Of a DNA stretch of 64,000 bases, positions 10,931 to 34,209 are shown piece by piece. Positions within the stretch are counted from its first letter, which is position 1; every line of letters starts with the position of its first letter. The notes beneath the pieces were generated by a model that worked only from the letters and a program-made list of their open reading frames with translations, was not told where the DNA came from and ran no database searches. The DNA is from Pseudomonadota bacterium (GTDB taxonomy: Bacteria > Pseudomonadota > Gammaproteobacteria > Burkholderiales > JAJZUU01), in NCBI GenBank assembly GCA_021848325.1, contig JAJZUU010000004.1, positions 8,720 to 72,719 of the forward strand. Reading direction: 5' to 3'. The position numbers and the translations under genes are program-made.

Positions 10931-11974
10931 ATGGAAATCGCGGAACTGCTCGCTTTCACGGTAAAGAACAAGGCTTCCGACCTGCACCTGTCGTCCGGCC
11001 TCCCCCCCATGATCCGGGTCCATGGCGACATCCGCCGCATCAACGTGCCGGCGCTGGACCACAAGGGCGTGCACGCCATGGTGTACGACATCATGAACGA
11101 CGGCCAGCGCAAGCATTACGAGGAGAACCTGGAGGCGGACTTCTCGTTCGAGGTCCCGAACCTGGCCCGCTTCCGGGTGAACGCCTTCGTGCAGCAGCGC
11201 GGCGCCGGGGCGGTGTTCCGTACCATTCCATCCAAGGTGCTCACCCTGGAGGACCTGAACGCCCCGCCCATCTTCAAGGAAATCTCCGATCAGCCGCGGG
11301 GCATCGTGCTGGTCACGGGACCCACCGGCTCCGGCAAGTCGACCACCCTGGCCGCCATGGTCGATTACATCAACGAGATCGAATACGGCCATATCCTCAC
11401 CGTGGAGGACCCCATCGAGTTCGTGCACCAGAGCAAGAAATGCCTGATCAACCAGCGGGAAGTGGGGCCCCACACCCTGAGCTTCAACAACGCCCTGCGC
11501 TCCGCCCTGCGGGAGGACCCGGACGTGATCCTGGTGGGCGAGCTGCGCGACCTGGAGACCATACGCCTGGCGCTCACCGCGGCCGAGACCGGCCACCTGG
11601 TATTCGGCACCCTGCACACCAGTTCCGCCGCCAAGACCATCGACCGGATCATCGACGTGTTCCCGGCGGCGGAAAAGGACATGGTGCGCTCCATGCTGTC
11701 GGAGAGTCTGCGCGCCGTCATCTCCCAGACCCTGCTCAAGACCAAGGACGGCTCCGGCCGGGTGGCGGCCCACGAGATCATGATCGGCACCCCGGCCATC
11801 CGCAACCTGATCCGGGAAAACAAGGTGGCACAGATGTATTCGGCGATCCAGACCGGCCAGAACATGGGCATGCAAACTCTGGACCAATGCCTGATGGACC
11901 TGGTGCGGCGCAATGTGGTGACCAAGGGCGAGGCCCGGGCGCGCGCCGCCAACAAGGATGCCTTTTTGGGCTGA
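10931..11974 (+). CDS. pilT: type IV pilus retraction ATPase PilT
   Basis: 347 aa. ASDLHL, Walker A GPTGSGKST, Asp box/Walker B ILVGELRD, His box TGHLVFGTLHT, and the AIRNLIRE motif typical of PilT. Confidence 0.92.
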   Translation: MEIAELLAFTVKNKASDLHLSSGLPPMIRVHGDIRRINVPALDHKGVHAMVYDIMNDGQRKHYEENLEADFSFEVPNLARFRVNAFVQQRGAGAVFRTIPSKVLTLEDLNAPPIFKEISDQPRGIVLVTGPTGSGKSTTLAAMVDYINEIEYGHILTVEDPIEFVHQSKKCLINQREVGPHTLSFNNALRSALREDPDVILVGELRDLETIRLALTAAETGHLVFGTLHTSSAAKTIDRIIDVFPAAEKDMVRSMLSESLRAVISQTLLKTKDGSGRVAAHEIMIGTPAIRNLIRENKVAQMYSAIQTGQNMGMQTLDQCLMDLVRRNVVTKGEARARAANKDAFLG

Positions 11975-12007: not shown

Positions 12008-13144
12008 ATGGAACGGGACCAAGCAGTAAAATTTATGCACGATCTGCTGCGCCTGATGGTCGGCAAGAAGGCCTCCGACCTGTTTATCACCGCGGGCTTT
12101 CCCCCGGCGGTGAAGATCGACGGCAAGCTCACGCCGGTCTCCAATCAGACCCTGACGCCCCAGCACACCAAGGAGCTGGCGCGCGCCATCATGAACGACA
12201 AGCAGGCGGCGGAGTTCGAGGAGAGCAAGGAGTGCAACTTCGCCATCGCCCCGCCCGAACTGGGGCGTTTTCGTGCCAATGCCTTCATTCAGCAGGGACG
12301 CACCGGGCTGGTGCTGCGCACCATCACCACCAAGATCCCGAAATTCGAGGAACTGGGACTGCCGGAGGTGCTGAAGGACGTGGCCATGACCAAGCGCGGC
12401 CTGGTCATCTTCGTGGGCGGGACCGGCTCCGGCAAGTCCACCTCCCTGGCGGCGATGGTGGGCTATCGCAACGAGCAGAGCTACGGCCATATCATCACCA
12501 TCGAGGACCCGGTGGAGTACGTCCACGAGCACAATAACTGCATCGTCACCCAGCGCGAGGTCGGGGTGGACACGGACAACTGGTTCTCCGCTCTGAAGAA
12601 CACCCTGCGCCAGGCGCCGGACGTAATCCTGATCGGCGAGATCAGGGACCGGGAAACCATGGACTACGCCATCGCCTTCGCCGAGACCGGCCACCTGTGC
12701 CTTTCCACCCTGCACGCCAACAGCGCCAACCAGGCCCTGGACCGGATCATCAACTTCTTTCCGGAGGAACGCCGGCAGCAATTGCTGATGGACCTTTCCC
12801 TCAACCTCAAGGCCTTCATCTCCCAGCGCCTGATGCCGAAGAAAGACGGGCCGGGGCGAGTGGCGGCGGTGGAGGTGATGCTCAACTCCCCGCTGATCTC
12901 CGATCTGATTTTCAAAGGGGAGGTCCACGGCATCAAGGAGATCATGGCCAAGTCGCGGGAACTGGGCATGCAGACCTTCGATCAGGCCCTGTTCGACCTC
13001 TACGAGGGCGGCCTGATCAGCTACGAAGACGCGCTGCGCAACGCCGATTCCCTTAACGATCTGCGCCTGCGCATCAAGCTGCACGGCAAGGACGCCAAGG
13101 AGCGCGACGTGCTGTCCGGGCTCGACCACCTGGATATCGTTTAG
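12008..13144 (+). CDS. pilU: type IV pilus ATPase PilU
   Basis: 378-aa PilT paralogue directly downstream of pilT (GGTGSGKST, ILIGEIRD, TGHLCLSTLHA). Lacks the AIRNLIRE motif (has LISDLIFKGE), as in PilU. Confidence 0.88.
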   Translation: MERDQAVKFMHDLLRLMVGKKASDLFITAGFPPAVKIDGKLTPVSNQTLTPQHTKELARAIMNDKQAAEFEESKECNFAIAPPELGRFRANAFIQQGRTGLVLRTITTKIPKFEELGLPEVLKDVAMTKRGLVIFVGGTGSGKSTSLAAMVGYRNEQSYGHIITIEDPVEYVHEHNNCIVTQREVGVDTDNWFSALKNTLRQAPDVILIGEIRDRETMDYAIAFAETGHLCLSTLHANSANQALDRIINFFPEERRQQLLMDLSLNLKAFISQRLMPKKDGPGRVAAVEVMLNSPLISDLIFKGEVHGIKEIMAKSRELGMQTFDQALFDLYEGGLISYEDALRNADSLNDLRLRIKLHGKDAKERDVLSGLDHLDIV

Positions 13145-14313
13145 GCGTCGGGTTCGGGTTTTTTCCGCCGGGCCGAGCCTTCCACCATCTTGAATTCGAA
13201 CAGCCGACATTCCAGCGGGCCGTTGAACAGGGGGATGCGGCGGGACGGAGCCAGGCGCATCAGCCCCGGCAGGCGCATGTCGGCGGTCAGCAGATACACC
13301 CGCCAGCCGCTGAATTTCTTCTTCAGCACGTCCCCCAAGCGGGGGTAGAATTCGGCCAGTTCCTGCTGTTCTCCCAGACGCACCCCGTATGGCGGGTTGG
13401 TCACGATGATCCCGGTGTCGGCCGGTGCGCTGATTTCCAGCACGTTGGCCTGGTTCAGGCGGAGCACCTGGGACAGGCCGGCAGCCTCGAGGTTGGTCCT
13501 CGCCGCGGCCAGGGTATTCCCGGAAAGGTCGCTGCCATAGATGGGCTGCGGCGTCTTTGGCAGTTGCCGCGCCAGGCTGGCGCCGCGTATCGTATCCCAG
13601 GTCCGGGCGCAGAAGTTGTTGAGCTTTTCGAAGCCGAAGCCGCGGTCCATGCCGGGGGCGATATTGAGCGCCATCTGCGCCGCCTCCAGCAGGATCGTGC
13701 CGCCGCCGCACATGGGGTCCAGCAAGGGAATCCCCGGCGACCAGCCCGCGAGCTTGAGGATGCCCGCCGCCAGGTTTTCCCGCAGCGGCGCCTCCGTGCC
13801 TGCCTGGCGCAAGCCGCGCTGGAACAGCGCCGGGCCGGAGGTGTCCAGGTACAGGGTGAAGCGCTCGGCGTCCAGGAAGGCGTAAACGCGCACGTCCGGG
13901 GCGTGAGTCTCCACGCTCGGCCGGGAGCCGGTGGCGCGGCGGAATGCGTCGCACAGCGCGTCCTTGATGCGCAGGGTGAGGAAGTCCAGGCTGCGCAAGG
14001 GGCATTTCCGCGCGCTCACCTTGACCATGACGGTGCGGCCCGCATCGAACCAGTTCGTCCAAGGGAGGCCGTAGGCGGCGCGGTAGATGTCCTCCTCGCT
14101 GCCATAGCGGCCGCCCGCGATCTGCCAAAGCACGCGGCTGGCGATGCGGCTTTCCAGATTGACCTGGTAACATAGCGGAAATTCTCCGCGGAAGGCGACC
14201 CCGCCCTGGGTCGCCTCCGGTGCCCGCGCTCCCAGCCCTTCCAGTTCGGAGGCGAGAACGCCCTCCAGCCCGCGCGGACAGGGGGAAAAAAAGCGGTGGA
14301 TCGTGGCGTCCAT
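13141..14313 (-). CDS. THUMP-domain class I SAM-dependent RNA methyltransferase (RlmL N-half-like)
   Basis: Start at internal ATG (MDATIHRFFSPCPRGLEGVLASEL). DPMCGGGTILLEAA SAM site and catalytic NPPYG (IIVTNPPYGVRLG). Its stop overlaps the pilU stop in the palindromic-like TTAG. Confidence 0.8.
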   Translation of the reverse strand: MDATIHRFFSPCPRGLEGVLASELEGLGARAPEATQGGVAFRGEFPLCYQVNLESRIASRVLWQIAGGRYGSEEDIYRAAYGLPWTNWFDAGRTVMVKVSARKCPLRSLDFLTLRIKDALCDAFRRATGSRPSVETHAPDVRVYAFLDAERFTLYLDTSGPALFQRGLRQAGTEAPLRENLAAGILKLAGWSPGIPLLDPMCGGGTILLEAAQMALNIAPGMDRGFGFEKLNNFCARTWDTIRGASLARQLPKTPQPIYGSDLSGNTLAAARTNLEAAGLSQVLRLNQANVLEISAPADTGIIVTNPPYGVRLGEQQELAEFYPRLGDVLKKKFSGWRVYLLTADMRLPGLMRLAPSRRIPLFNGPLECRLFEFKMVEGSARRKKPEPDA

Positions 14314-14398
14314 CCCGTTGCCTATAGCCAATTGATCGAATGACCCGAATGGTACACCAATCGGCGCCAAATGAACTCCCGGGAGGGACGGCGGAAAG

Positions 14399-18279: not shown

Positions 18280-18447
18280 CTAGGAGCCTGTCGGACTTGA
18301 AGAATCGAAGCGAAAATTCGGCTGGTCGAGGACAGATTTTGTCGATTTTGCAGGTCAATAGTCGTTCTATTGACCAAAAAAGCGGCGAAATATGGACCGG
18401 TCAGGCGGATTTGCAGCCGATTTCCTTTAAGTCCGACAGGCTCCTAG
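18280..18447 (+). mobile_element. MITE-B copy 1 (168 bp) with CTAGGAGCCTGTCGGACTT terminal inverted repeats
   Basis: 19-bp perfect TIR (18280-18298 vs 18429-18447). Internal 9-bp stem GGTCAATAG/CTATTGACC. Identical to the reverse complement of 32609-32815 apart from a 39-bp indel. Confidence 0.75.
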
Positions 18448-18571
18448 TATTGTGGGTTTTTTTCGCCCGCTTGTCATCCGCTTCGCCCCTCGGGCTACGG
18501 GGCACGTCCGGTTTGAGGCGGGCTTCAGGGCAAAGTTCCGCGCCCCCGGGGCCCGGCCTGCCGGATCCGGG

Positions 18572-32133: not shown

Positions 32134-32243
32134 TTGTGGTCCTGTTGCGTCGCGGCGGGTTTTTCGGGCAGTCGGAGCGGCCCCTTGTAGCCGCAGCCGG
32201 CCAGCAGGAGCGCAGCCAACGCTAGCAAAGCGACCAACCGCAT
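32130..32243 (-). CDS. lptM: small lipoprotein LptM (YifL family)
   Basis: Below the track cut-off, found by hand: MRLVALLALAALLLAGCGYKGPLRLPEKPAATQQDHK (37 aa). Lipobox LLAGC followed by GYKGPL.LP. Its TGA overlaps the lysA GTG. Conserved lptM-lysA pairing. Confidence 0.7.
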   Translation of the reverse strand: MRLVALLALAALLLAGCGYKGPLRLPEKPAATQQDHK

Positions 32244-32291
32244 AGTATGCTCTCCCCAGGGAAATTGGGCATCTTATCATAAAGGCCGGAC

Positions 32292-32612
32292 ATGACCGAA
32301 AGCGAGTACAGCCAACGGATCGAGCAAGCGTTCGGGCGCATCGAACAGGCGCTGGACGCAAGCGACGCGGACATCGATTACGAGACCGTAGCGGGCGGGG
32401 TGCTGGAACTGGAATGCGCCGACGGCAGCAAGATCGTGGTCAACCGCCAGGCCGCGGCCCAGGAGATCTGGGTGGCGGCGAAATCCGGCGGCTATCATTT
32501 CACGTGGCGGGACGGCGCCTGGCGCAACACCCGCGACGGCAGCGACCTGTACGCCGTCTTGGCGCGGGTCGTTTTCGAGCAGTCGGGGGAAAGGCTGGCG
32601 CTGGGCGCCTAG
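32292..32612 (+). CDS. cyaY: frataxin-like iron-sulfur cluster assembly protein CyaY
   Basis: 106 aa. DIDYETVAGGVLELECADGSKIVVNRQAAAQEIWVAAKSGGYHF is the CyaY pattern. Stop TAG lies in the terminal CTAG of MITE-B copy 2. Confidence 0.88.
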   Translation: MTESEYSQRIEQAFGRIEQALDASDADIDYETVAGGVLELECADGSKIVVNRQAAAQEIWVAAKSGGYHFTWRDGAWRNTRDGSDLYAVLARVVFEQSGERLALGA

Positions 32613-32815
32613 GAGCCTGTCGGACTTAAAGGAAATCGGCTGCAAATCCGCCTGACCGGTCCATATTTCGCCGCTTTTTTGGTCAATAGAACGACTATTG
32701 ACCTGCAAAATCGACAAAATCTGTCCTCGACCAGCCGAATTTTGCGAGCAGCCGCTACGCGGCTTGCCTGCCTGACCCGCTTCGCTTCGATTCTTCAAGT
32801 CCGACAGGCTCCTAG
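32609..32815 (-). mobile_element. MITE-B copy 2 (207 bp), inverted relative to copy 1
   Basis: Reverse complement equals 18280-18447 base for base, except for an extra 39 bp (32744-32782). Same 19-bp TIRs. Its two terminal CTAGs contain the stop codons of cyaY (32610-32612) and argH (32812-32814). Confidence 0.75.
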
Positions 32816-34209
32816 GCCAACTCCTGCCGCCCCCGGGCCACCGCCGCCCGCACCTGGGCCGGGGCGGTGCCGCCGATGTGGTCGCGGCTCTTGAGGGAAC
32901 CCTCCAGGGTGAGCACGCCGAACACGTCCGCCGCGATCAGGTCCGAAAAGCCCTGCAATTCCGCCAGCGGCAGGTCGGGCAGGTCGCAGCGCCGGCCCTC
33001 GGCATGGCGCACGGCCCTGGCCACCACCTCGTGGGCGTCGCGAAAGGGCAGGCCCTTCTTGACCAGGTAGTCGGCCAGGTCGGTGGCGGTGGCGAAGCCC
33101 TGGGCCGCCGCCGCGCGCATGGCCTCCGGGTGCACCGTGATGCCCCCCAGCATGTCCGCCAGGATGGTCAGGGTGACGGCCAGGGTGTCCGCGGTGTCGA
33201 ACAGGGGCTCTTTGTCCTCCTGGTTGTCCTTGTTGTAGGCCAGGGGCTGGGACTTCATCAGGGTGAGCAGCGCCACCAGGTGGCCGTTCACCCGCCCGGT
33301 CTTGCCGCGGATCAGCTCCGGCACGTCCGGGTTCTTCTTTTGCGGCATGATGGAGGAGCCGGTGCAGAAGCGGTCGGCGATGGTGATAAAGCCGAAGCGC
33401 GGGTTCATCCACAGGATGAGTTCCTCCGACAGCCGCGACAAATGGGTCATGACGAGGGCGGCGCAGGCCGCGAATTCGATGGCGAAGTCGCGGTCGGAGA
33501 CGGCGTCCAGGGAATTCTCGCACACCCCGGCGAAGCCCAGTTCCCGTGCCACCATTTCCCGGTCGATGGGGTAGCTGGTGCCGGCCAGGGCGGCGGCCCC
33601 CAGGGGCAGGCGGTTGACCCGCTTGCGGCAGTCCGCGAACCGCTCGGCGTCCCGTTTCAGCATCTCGAAGTAGGCCATCAGGTGATGGCCGAAGCTCACC
33701 GGCTGCGCCACCTGGAGGTGGGTAAATCCGGGCATGATGGTGTCGGCGTGACGCTCGGCCAGGTCCAGCAGGGCGACCTGGGCGTTCCTGATCAGGGCGA
33801 GCAGGTCGTCGATGGCGCTGCGCAGGTAGAGGCGCACGTCGGTGGCGACCTGGTCGTTGCGCGAGCGGCCGGTGTGCAGGCGCTTGCCGGCATCGCCGAT
33901 GCGCTCGGTCAGGCGCTTCTCGATGTTCAGGTGCACGTCCTCCAGGTCCAGCGACCATGGGAAGCGCCCCGCGCGGATTTCCTCGGCGATGGCGGCCAGG
34001 CCCTTCTCTATGGCGGCCAGGTCCGCGGCGCTCAAAACCCCCACCGCGTGCAGCATGCGGGCATGGGCGAGGGAGCCCTGGATGTCGAACGGCGCCAGGC
34101 GGCGGTCGAATTCCACCGAGGCGGTATAGCGCTTGACCAGTTCGGCCACCGGTTCGGCGAACCTGCCAGACCATGGCTTTTCCGTCCCGGATTCCTTTTT
34201 GTCTTGCAT
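32812..34209 (-). CDS. argH: argininosuccinate lyase
   Basis: 465 aa. [28 protein letters not shown] (fumarate-lyase signature). Confidence 0.93.

Follow-up and report, generated by a model that had tools for sequence, protein, structure and literature searches.

Insertion sequences of the IS1182 family are 1330-1950 bp long and carry one transposase ORF (ISfinder range). Members of this family have been reported to target palindromes (PMC5678879, citing Siguier et al.), and one of them, ISPsy36, lies at GGCC with GGCC repeats (PMC8027508). For the IS630 family, the target quoted in the same paper is NTAN (PMC5678879). The MITE MITEPsy1 has terminal inverted repeats of about 18 nt (PMC3189936). 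The window analyzed here (the whole stretch of DNA, 64,000 nt) contains two copies of a short element, of which copy 2, located between cyaY and argH, is confirmed to be a MITE (a non-autonomous DDE transposon) occupying positions 32613-32811.

Copy 2 separates two convergent genes. The cyaY gene (32292..32612, + strand) encodes a 106-aa frataxin-like iron donor (Pfam Frataxin_Cyay, 4.5e-27) and ends with the stop codon TAG at 32610-32612. The argH gene (32812..34209, - strand) encodes a 465-aa argininosuccinate lyase (Pfam Lyase_1, 1.3e-77; ASL_C2, 2e-27), and its stop codon TAG is the complement of 32812-32814. Between them lies the 199-bp body of the element, a member of the long subfamily that is non-coding, without Pfam-supported coding capacity, and that can fold on itself as a nearly full-length hairpin. 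By direct reading, this body is flanked on either side by CTAG (32609-32612 and 32812-32815), and the junction reads ...ctgggcgc CTAG GAGCCTGTCGGACTTAAAG ... CTTCAAGTCCGACAGGCTC CTAG gccaactc.... The left terminal inverted repeat, GAGCCTGTCGGACTTAAAG (32613..32631, + strand), is the same terminus that is carried by the IS1182-family elements L052 and L154. Its right-hand counterpart (32793..32811) reads GAGCCTGTCGGACTTGAAG on the - strand. These repeats are perfect over 15 nt and extend to 19 nt with one mismatch; with the flanks included, the inverted repeat spans 25 nt (32607-32631 and 32793-32817) with 96% complementarity.

Copy 1 lies in the opposite orientation in a redoxin/membrane-protein intergenic region (18280..18447 with its flanking CTAGs; 160-bp body at 18284-18443). 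Alignment of the two copies found them to be the same apart from a 39-nt internal module of copy 2 (32744..32782, boundaries ambiguous by a few bases), which is missing from the 160-bp form and contains the hairpin GCAGCCGC-TAC-GCGGCTTGC. The module is common to copies of ~199-203 bp at five other loci (L027, L226, L082, L110 and L057), and copy 2 is 93% identical to the 197-bp copy of the Gallionellales MAG L027. The only entries for either copy in the ORF list were spurious frames running across the element. The 15-nt terminus occurs four times without mismatch in the window, at both ends of both copies; with up to three mismatches allowed, there were 8 matches as compared with 2.0 expected, a number reached in 0 of 100 shuffles. 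CTAG itself is scarce in the window, with 23 sites as compared with 54 expected under a Markov model and 211 expected from base composition. Because CTAG is this rare, the finding that all four element ends abut CTAG is not due to chance (about 1.7e-14). The element is smaller than ~300 bp, lacks a transposase gene, and is bounded by terminal inverted repeats. It is also dispersed in copies with differing flanks, is polymorphic for its presence, with exact empty alleles and duplication of the target, and is accompanied by autonomous elements with matching termini.

Contigs from the same population revealed empty sites for both copies. The original prediction placed copy 2 exactly within a single CTAG formed by the overlapping stop codons of cyaY and argH, and its coordinates agreed with ours base for base. 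When related cyaY-argH junctions were compared, the predicted single shared CTAG was present in 4 of the 10 population contigs as GGCGC-CTAG-GCCAAC (ctgggcgcCTAGgccaactcc). The site was filled in six contigs, and the flanks of filled and empty contigs were about 99% identical. The insertion was a simple addition of the element and 4 bases, with nothing deleted, and before it occurred cyaY and argH overlapped by 4 bp. The expectation that both reading frames had been kept was also borne out: the CyaY protein is identical on filled and empty contigs, and ArgH of the empty allele differs only at residues 68-69, with an unchanged C-terminus. For copy 1, the empty site CAATA-CTAG-CCACC was found exactly in seven contigs, and one contig was filled for copy 2 and empty for copy 1. 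The exact empty sites for both copies indicate that both insertions are recent, and the copy 2 insertion is still polymorphic in a natural population, being absent from 4 of 10 contigs. Because CTAG was rebuilt on both sides, both genes keep a TAG stop codon and an unchanged protein, which suggests that the insertion was neutral or nearly so.

Beyond the window, 147 unique complete copies were found in other genomes and metagenomes, and the family is widespread in Betaproteobacteria. The modal length is 160 bp, and 67 of the 147 copies have exactly this length. As had been anticipated for other copies, CTAG flanks predominate: 84 of the 147 complete copies are flanked by CTAG/CTAG, and most of the others are one transition away. 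Copies remain 95-98% identical between genera that have only about 65% identity in their housekeeping proteins. None of the catalogued loci belongs to the species of the window, and the best nucleotide match is 83% over 2 kb, to a Sulfuricella MAG. The longer copies, inspected for nested insertions of the same family, hold unrelated internal modules, and L116 holds a different MITE.

Ten elements of 1525-1639 bp, a length within the IS1182-family range, have the same termini as the MITE, and all ten are flanked by CTAG/CTAG. The transposases of four of these ten partners were checked, L054 and L052 with Pfam, L054 also with NCBIfam, L154 from its ORF, and L123 from its PGAP annotation. The checked partners carry a single ORF of 445-459 aa, and the Pfam domains found were DDE_Tnp_1, DDE_Tnp_1_6 and DUF772. 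The L054 transposase matched the NCBIfam model for IS1182 (NF033551) with 371.3 bits against a cut-off of 270, and the L123 protein is named by PGAP as an "IS1182-like element ISAzo2 family transposase." The MITE and its partners have only CTAG and 19-23 nt in common; in L154, the terminal inverted repeat matches that of the MITE at 23 of 23 nt, flanking CTAG included. By tblastn, no IS1182-family transposase gene was found in the 64-kb window or in the fetched population contigs.

The common termini and the common CTAG target suggest that the MITE is mobilized in trans by an IS1182-family transposase. In the proposed model, the MITE would carry only the terminal inverted repeats, (G/C)AGCCTGTCGGACTT, of ISAzo2-like IS1182-family insertion sequences, and an ISAzo2-like DDE transposase would mobilize it in trans and integrate it almost exclusively at CTAG, a rare palindrome. 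The convergent cyaY and argH genes of the ancestral strain would have shared one CTAG, in which TAG ended cyaY on the + strand and argH on the - strand. The element would have inserted into this shared CTAG, and integration would have regenerated CTAG at each flank. A 4-bp duplication could have done so, but duplication of TA combined with a terminal G and C of the element is more likely. Collectively, we consider it very likely that copy 2 is an IS1182-mobilized MITE that entered the CTAG of the shared cyaY/argH stop codons and rebuilt both stops at little or no cost.

Since CTAG is palindromic, the size of the duplication cannot be read from CTAG sites. Among 313 ends with an intact central TA, the outer flank base was other than C 27 times and the inner base other than G 8 times (p = 0.0009), and the excess of outer-base changes was present at ends of both kinds, which led to the rejection of a duplication of 3 bp (TAG) placed asymmetrically. 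Among complete copies, the flank pairs included seven TTAG/CTAG and one TTAG/CTAA, with no TTAG/TTAG or CTAA/CTAA pairs, and left flanks of TTAG, GTAG or ATAG were never paired with the same tetramer on the right. The counts of TTAG and CTAA, which should be equal under a 4-bp duplication, were 17 and 4 (p = 0.007). The asymmetry of 27 to 8, together with the absence of TTAG/TTAG and CTAA/CTAA pairs, favors a duplication of TA by an element with the tips G...C. The left CTAG of copy 2 would then consist of C, the duplicated TA and the element tip G, and the right CTAG of the element tip C, the duplicated TA and G; otherwise, the two are simply copies of the target CTAG seen in the empty alleles.

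The earlier interpretation of CTAG as a 4-bp duplication of the YTAR type is compatible with CTAG/CTAG flanks, but the missing TTAG/TTAG and CTAA/CTAA pairs and the asymmetry of outer and inner bases speak against it. One form of this alternative keeps the IS1182-family partner and invokes a 4-bp staggered cut, by which the whole CTAG would be duplicated and the element would start at (G/C)AGCC. Such a cut agrees fully with the filled and empty alleles of the window site, and one copy (L060) is flanked by CTGG/CTGG. There are also precedents: ISPse1, of the IS1182 family, was captured in trap plasmids with 4-bp repeats (PMC3281130), GGCC is the repeat of ISPsy36 (PMC8027508), and MITEs derived from ISMac2 have been described with a direct repeat of 4 (PMC3852290). 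Against it, in addition to the flank statistics above, a 4-bp duplication would mean that the outermost base of the transposon itself varies between G and C. We therefore regard a 4-bp duplication as possible, though improbable, and a TA duplication with element tips G...C as more likely, the 2-bp stagger being deduced from flank statistics only. The size of the duplication was also sought at two copies with variant flanks. For L030 (TTAG...CTAA), the nearest homologues reach only about 80% identity, and the one inspected, P0122, is followed by a different gene and thus offers no empty site. The L117 copy, from Nitrosovibrio Nv4, is flanked by TTAG...CTAG and lies on the stop codon of a phosphoribosyltransferase gene; a 99%-identical relative, L255, lacks the element and has a 13-nt/1-nt indel exactly on the informative side.

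Stop codons were recurrent landing sites of the family. Between 14 and 22% of element ends close long open frames; for free CTAG sites, the proportion is 5-11%, which corresponds to an odds ratio of 2.2-5.1 (p 4e-6 to 2e-8). This enrichment supports the landing-pad suggestion, and the related observation that pilU and the THUMP methyltransferase share a TTAG at 13141-13144 was correct. Landings on the stop codons of real genes were verified for glnE (L062), a cheB-family methylesterase (L030), the phosphoribosyltransferase (L117) and a 188-aa gene (L018). Further landings on two stop codons at once were not found among the candidates: L018, L062 and L115 each have one verified gene end, and the second "ORF" is spurious or unsupported. 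So far, therefore, the configuration of two convergent stop codons is unique to this window.

If only TA is duplicated and the tips are G...C, any stop codon TAA or TAG that is entered at its TA, whichever its strand, would be restored as TAG with no change to the protein. Frames of 200 codons or more are closed by 9 of 25 ends with an outer base other than C, as compared with 33 of 276 ends with an outer C (p = 0.003). At L030, the TAG stop codon of the cheB-family gene takes its G from the element side, beside a probable TTAA target. These observations raise the tentative idea, which we are inclined to doubt, that the family is built to use stop codons as safe harbors. If this were true, gene ends, including shared convergent stop codons, would be its natural niche in GC-rich genomes in which TA and CTAG are scarce, and the habit would explain the spread of the family across genera at 95-98% identity.

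An alternative to neutrality is that copy 2 was kept because it is functional, either as a bidirectional terminator or as an mRNA-stabilizing 3' hairpin. Before the insertion, the 4-bp overlap of the two genes left no room for a terminator, and the element forms a very stable hairpin in both directions, with minimum free energies of -83.8 kcal/mol (+ strand) and -109.6 kcal/mol (- strand) and z-scores of -7.3 and -10.0. A comparison of 98 unique copies showed the full-length hairpin to be 97% paired, with 14 compensatory pairs as compared with 3-10 in shifted controls, although these covariation counts are inflated by kinship among copies. Conservation of the hairpin is, however, expected because the two halves of the transposon are inverted repeats. 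A terminator scan of 32200-33200 detected no site with a stem and U-tract on either strand, and the only T-run of the element (32675-32680) is not preceded by a strong stem. The same interval contained no promoter-like site, and there was no Rfam family match, the best scores being 20 bits against a gathering threshold of 98 and 14.6 bits against 45. The insertion is, moreover, absent from 4 of the 10 population contigs, and the family inserts in all kinds of contexts. Retention of copy 2 for a function is thus unlikely, and a neutral or nearly neutral insertion is the reading that we retain.

Two other transposase families could be considered as mobilizers. A MITE of the IS630/Tc1-mariner type, with classic CTAG/NTAN insertion and TA duplication, would match exactly the N-TA-N flanks, the strong CTAG preference and the probable TA duplication seen here; it is nevertheless very improbable, given that the four same-ended full-length elements checked out of ten were all of the IS1182 family (DDE_Tnp_1) and not IS630, and that no IS630-family transposase gene bounded by GAGCCTGTCGGACTT termini was found among the loci examined. 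Equally hard to sustain is the original prediction of an IS5-group (IS5 family) transposase with the 4-bp YTAR target that is typical for IS5: CTAG belongs to the YTAR tetramers, DDE_Tnp_1 is also an IS5-family domain, and an IS5-family MITE that duplicates 4 nt at CTAG/YTAA does exist in MITEPsy1 (PMC3189936), yet the same-ended 1.5-1.6-kb elements encode 445-459-aa IS1182-family enzymes with DUF772 and DDE_Tnp_1_6, the IS5 models scored 62, 28 and 23 bits with the L054 transposase, all under their cut-offs of 140-275, the closest catalogued element (ISAzo2) is assigned to IS1182 by PGAP, no YTAR direct-repeat pairs other than CTAG occur among the copies, and no IS5-group element with these termini was present in the roughly 230 loci examined.

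With an IS1182-family mobilizer as the preferred reading, the locus represents an unusually complete natural experiment, in which an empty allele with a shared palindromic stop codon and a filled allele coexist in one population. It shows that an uncultured lineage of Betaproteobacteria harbors an active MITE, identifies the likely family of its mobilizer, and provides a concrete case of how a CTAG-specific element can occupy stop codons, probably at no cost. Annotation benefits from this knowledge, since metagenome assemblies are broken by such elements where genes end, as in 6 of the 10 contigs. The elements also bear on estimates of how far mobile DNA has recently spread by horizontal transfer among nitrifiers and sulfur or iron oxidizers.

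Among known systems, the IS630 family follows the same flank logic as the window family, with a CTAG-preferring target and a probable TA duplication. Correia-type elements, with TA duplication at CTAG/NTAN targets, can be likened to it in the same way. Both differ from the window family in their transposase family and have no sequence similarity to it. The staphylococcal IS1272 also belongs to the IS1182 family and is reported to choose targets that are palindromic or inverted repeats (PMC5678879), but it is reported to replace stem-loops with no duplication, whereas the window element was simply added into a 4-bp palindrome with no deletion. The ISMac2-derived MITEs of Methanosarcina acetivorans offer a precedent for MITEs of 160-169 bp arising from an IS1182-family element (PMC3852290); unlike the window element, they are archaeal, unrelated in sequence, and reported with direct repeats of 4 or 0. 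The Pseudomonas syringae element MITEPsy1, which stems from the IS5-family element ISPsy2, is likewise a short MITE that inserts at CTAG and has it on both sides (PMC3189936). However, its termini, GGAAGGTCTGAAAAAGCC, and its transposase family are different, and its 4-nt duplication is documented to include YTAA sites, whereas no non-CTAG YTAR direct repeats were found in the window family.

The closest catalogued element is ISAzo2, of the IS1182 family, on plasmid 2 of Aromatoleum aromaticum EbN1, whose terminus, CAGCCTGTCGG(G/A)CTT, and CTAG flanks are the same as those of the window element. Unnamed relatives of ISAzo2 in Polaromonas and other MAGs have the same ends and the same CTAG flanks, and the transposases of ISAzo2 and the L054 element share 68% identity. 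ISAzo2 is autonomous and 1545 bp long, whereas the window element is non-coding, measures 160-199 bp and has about 19-23 terminal nt in common with it. Like L052 and L154, both copies in the window belong to the "G" type (CTAG-G-AGCC), in contrast to ISAzo2, which belongs to the "C" type. Collectively, the element is an unnamed new member of an already known kind and not a new kind of system, and its insertion at the cyaY-argH junction, though very clean, is in essence ordinary transposon biology.

The junction between cyaY and argH reads ...GGGCGC-CTAG-GAGCCTGTCGGACTTAAAG...CTTCAAGTCCGACAGGCTC-CTAG-GCCAAC... in the window, with the two CTAG tetramers at 32609-32612 and 32812-32815. The open reading frames of cyaY (32292-32612, + strand; Pfam Frataxin_Cyay, 4.5e-27) and of the convergent argH (32812-34209, - strand; Lyase_1, 1.3e-77, and ASL_C2, 2e-27) end at these positions, so that the TAG stop of cyaY (32610-32612, + strand) lies inside the left CTAG and the stop of argH (complement of 32812-32814) inside the right one. 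The inverted repeat of the intervening 199-bp element, copy 2 (32613-32811), extends across both tetramers, with 25-nt arms at 32607-32631 and 32793-32817 that are 96% complementary. Its 15-nt terminus, GAGCCTGTCGGACTT, had four perfect occurrences in the window, corresponding to both ends of two elements; at three or fewer mismatches there were 8 matches against 2.0 expected, a number reached by none of 100 shuffles. Because the window contains far fewer CTAG sites than expected (23, against 54 from a Markov model and 211 from base composition, a 2- to 9-fold deficit), the abutment of all four element ends on CTAG is not due to chance.

Contigs encoding an identical CyaY, or one of 98% identity, were used for allele comparison. 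Four of them (L006, L007, L010 and L011) carried an empty allele reading ctgggcgcCTAGgccaactcc, where the ends of cyaY and argH have the four bases CTAG in common. Six (L001-L004, L008 and L009) carried the filled allele, and most of these end within the MITE, since assemblies break at repeats. The flanks of filled and empty alleles were ~99% identical (mismatches 10/1004 and 6/1000), and ArgH differed only at residues 68-69; therefore, neither the CyaY nor the ArgH C terminus was altered. The original prediction of an exact insertion into a CTAG shared as overlapping stops, with a single CTAG at the empty site and both reading frames preserved, thus agreed with the window base for base and with the related contigs. 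In a more distant relative (L005; CyaY 76% identity), a different gene lies downstream.

The second element in the window, copy 1, is 160 bp long (18284-18443), runs opposite to copy 2, and is likewise flanked by CTAG at each end. The sole difference between the copies is an additional 39-nt internal module in copy 2 (~32744-32782), which is a hairpin module. The copy 1 locus was element-free in 7/7 related contigs (L124-L130), where it reads CCCACAATA-CTAG-CCACCATTGG. One contig, recovered as both L009 and L129, is filled at the copy 2 locus and empty at the copy 1 locus; copy 2 is therefore the older or more widespread insertion, and copy 1 a later gain in the window strain. Both are recent insertions, and the MITE family has been mobile in this population. 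A promoter-like site (ATGACA-17-CACAAT, 18449-18477, - strand) ends a single base away from copy 1's right CTAG and is directed at the redoxin-DinB genes (redoxin start, 18243), and copy 1 may therefore be located in the 5' leader of a redoxin-DinB operon.

Insertion into a palindromic CTAG leaves a filled allele that is equally compatible, in the window, with a 4-bp duplication of the target (CTAG + 199 bp + CTAG), a 2-bp duplication (C-TA + 201 bp (G...C) + TA-G), or no duplication. Among the matches listed, 84 of 147 complete copies had CTAG on both sides, and most others were one transition off. These matches include 313 unique ends that retain the central TA; among them, a base other than C stood at the outer position in 27 (TTAG 17, GTAG 7, ATAG 1, TTAA 2) and a base other than G at the inner position in 8 (p = 0.0009), an asymmetry seen at both kinds of end; TTAG exceeded CTAA by 17 to 4 (p = 0.007). 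Paired flanks included seven TTAG/CTAG and one TTAG/CTAA, with no TTAG/TTAG or CTAA/CTAA pair among the listed complete copies. The simplest reading of these sequences is an N-TA-N target, with CTAG strongly preferred (~89%), in which TA would be duplicated and the element tips would be G(G/C)AGCC. A G/C polymorphism near the tip was always identical at both ends of an element, and with TA duplication and G...C tips it would be subterminal. Under a 4-bp duplication of NTAN, each outer variant should have its inner mirror at the opposite end, but the pairs say otherwise; decay of strict CTAG duplications should be symmetric, because both positions stand in the same palindromic context, yet asymmetry was observed. 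However, 4-bp repeats are listed for the IS1182-family elements ISPse1 (PMC3281130), ISPsy36, at GGCC (PMC8027508), and the ISMac2 MITEs (PMC3852290), and for this reason the 2-bp duplication appears only about twice as probable as the less favored 4-bp duplication, and no more. IS1272 has been reported without duplication at palindromic targets (PMC5678879). CTAG/CTAG flanks are compatible with the originally proposed 4-bp duplication at YTAR, but the asymmetry and the pairing of variants speak against its size, and that reading should be revised.

Two further observations concern these flanks. An element-free Nitrosovibrio relative (L255) reads GGGCTAG-AGCTCAGCC, and the filled genome (L117) reads GGGCTAG[element]CTAACTGTCCCCATCC-AGCTCAGCC; this 13-nt/1-nt difference lies exactly at the MITE border (L117 300-560, L255 1290-1560) and may represent either the footprint of an excision that also deleted flanking bases or an indel of other origin. 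VSP-type T:G repair bias is the usual explanation of CTAG depletion. Decayed flanking CTAGs of older copies were mostly CTGG (46) and CCAG (31) of 407 ends (L012-L254, among the matches listed), which, with the depletion in the window, fits such a bias. The MITE keeps re-creating CTAG, and the host erodes the tetramer.

The proposal that stop codons serve as landing pads was examined by comparing how often an open frame terminates in the flanking TAG at MITE ends and at unoccupied CTAG sites of the same contigs. Frames of at least 100 codons were closed at 21.6% of MITE ends and 11.0% of free sites (p = 4e-6), with corresponding values of 17.9% and 7.1% for at least 150 codons (p = 4e-8), 14.0% and 4.7% for at least 200 (p = 7e-8), and 9.3% and 2.0% for at least 300 (p = 2e-8); odds ratios ranged from 2.2 to 5.1. 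Gene-end insertions were verified at glnE (L062), a cheB-family methylesterase gene (L030), a phosphoribosyltransferase gene (L117), and a 188-aa gene (L018), and many of the ~21 pre-insertion CTAGs of the window are gene ends. A mundane explanation suffices for this enrichment: the target holds TAG on both strands, coding frames are purged of CTAG, each integration restores CTAG at either side, and selection removes intragenic insertions. A double-stop insertion of the cyaY/argH type was not found again among the loci recovered, and L018, L062, and L115 each had one verified gene end. The enrichment at stop codons supports the landing-pad idea.

The pilU-like ATPase gene (T2SSE; 12008-13144, + strand) and the convergent THUMP/UPF0020 methyltransferase gene (13141-14370, - strand) do overlap, as had been noted, in a TTAG that supplies the TAG stop of one and the TAA stop of the other. 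This junction is unoccupied and could be a usable site if the MITE accepts NTAN targets. Repeat blocks at 11296-11669 and 12394-12767 (~71-72% identity, 1098-bp spacing) are unrelated to the MITE and suggest adjacent paralogous pilT/pilU-type ATPase genes, of which the frame at 12008-13144 alone was checked.

Copy 2 was predicted to form a near-full-length hairpin of -83.8 kcal/mol on the + strand (z-score, -7.3) and -109.6 kcal/mol on the - strand (z-score, -10.0). A 45-pair hairpin was 97% paired over 98 unique 160-bp copies, whose mean identity is 83%; compensatory changes occurred at 14 pairs, against 3-10 in shifted controls, and these counts are inflated by the kinship of the copies. Such conservation is expected for an element of two inverted halves. 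Neither a stem and U-tract terminator nor a sigma-70-like promoter was found in or beside copy 2, and the MITE had no Rfam match. Since cyaY and argH had no spacer before the insertion, a role as terminator, insulator, or mRNA stabilizer is possible, but it is unsupported and unnecessary for explaining the presence of copy 2. The insertion was absent from 4/10 population contigs.

Scans of one genome per species and then of JGI metagenomes with AGCCTGTCGGACTTRAAG, a pattern that does not constrain the tip base or flanks, gave at least 111 and at least 120 stretches, respectively, and at least 147 unique complete elements after duplicates were removed. Among the matches listed, the modal length was 160 bp, found in 67 copies; another 25 measured 159 or 161 bp, and a subfamily of 196-205 bp was present. 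Copy 2 falls in this long subfamily; over 197 bp it matches a Gallionellales copy (L027) at 93% identity, and its internal module is common to L226, L082, L110, and L057. Family members have gained 40-80-nt G+C-rich palindromic inserts at various positions (L016, L101, L204, L208), and acquisition of internal modules, including that of copy 2, accounts for length subfamilies of 196-242 bp. Hosts among the matches listed were chiefly Betaproteobacteria (Nitrosospira, Nitrosovibrio, Sulfuricella, Sulfurirhabdus, Nitrotoga, Gallionella, Thiobacillus, Thiomonas, Methylophilaceae, Polaromonas, Telluria/Massilia, and Rhodocyclales), with a few Lysobacteraceae. In a cross-genus comparison (L057 770-929, L037, L031), copy 1 shared 98.1% identity with a Sulfuricella sp. 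nzgw577 copy and ~97% with copies from a Telluria (Oxalobacteraceae) MAG. Because CyaY of the window and of Sulfuricella are only ~65% identical, these sequences suggest that the family has recently moved horizontally between genera.

Some copies stand head to tail with exactly one CTAG between them (L026 1481-1795, L048 ~1373-1379, L057 ~2199-2205); the CTAG regenerated by one insertion served as the next target. At L116 (2833-3157), a different MITE with termini CAGGGTGTTGAAAAAC...GTTTTTCAACACCCTG and TTAA/TTAA flanks is nested in a family member at TTAA; it is a further mini-element of these hosts that targets a palindrome. Terminal matches also occurred in MAGs labeled as distant phyla (L013, L036, L039, and L066, Streptomycetaceae; L024, Akkermansia; L051, Chlorobiaceae; L055, Methanomassiliicoccales). 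Typical family flanks (CTAG and CTGG) at several of these ends suggest that betaproteobacterial contigs contaminated the bins; the L055 and L022 matches look like chance.

Among the matches listed, ten elements of 1525-1639 bp carried the termini of the MITE, all flanked by CTAG/CTAG. The proteins of L054 (a Polaromonas MAG) and L052 are 457-459 aa long and contain DDE_Tnp_1, DDE_Tnp_1_6, and DUF772. In NCBIfam, the L054 protein scored 371 bits against the IS1182 family (cut-off 270); its nearest named relative in PLSDB, at 68% identity, was the "IS1182-like element ISAzo2 family transposase" of Aromatoleum aromaticum EbN1 plasmid 2. The 445-aa transposase of L154 shows the same sequence signatures at its N and C termini, and the ends of L154 match the window MITE at 23/23 nt; similarity of the MITE to these insertion sequences is confined to CTAG and the 19-23 terminal nt. 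The partner elements have the defining features of the IS1182 family. Since the checked elements with these termini encode IS1182-type transposases, the MITE is an IS1182-family (ISAzo2-like) derivative. No IS1182-type transposase gene was found in the window or the population contigs, and any mobilizer in this organism is putative. The originally proposed IS5-group origin fails on transposase family, as the L054 protein reached at most 62 bits against the IS5 models, under their cut-offs. An IS630 derivation fails on the same test for the partners checked.

Every MITE feature tested was found: the element is small, has terminal inverted repeats, occurs in many copies, leaves precise empty sites in related contigs, and is matched by an autonomous partner. 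A limited search of the searchable literature found no description of the family. Biologically, this is an unnamed MITE family of a sort already known; what makes it valuable is the clean polymorphism between filled and empty alleles, its spread across genera, and a quantified association with stop codons. Three named elements come closest. MITEPsy1 (PMC3189936) is an IS5-family MITE that duplicates 4 nt at CTAG/YTAA. ISAzo2 (CTAG-CAGCCTGTCGGGCTT...AGTCCGACAGGCTG-CTAG) shares its ends and its CTAG flanks with the MITE described here, and the ISMac2-derived MITEs provide a precedent for a MITE arising from an IS1182-family element.
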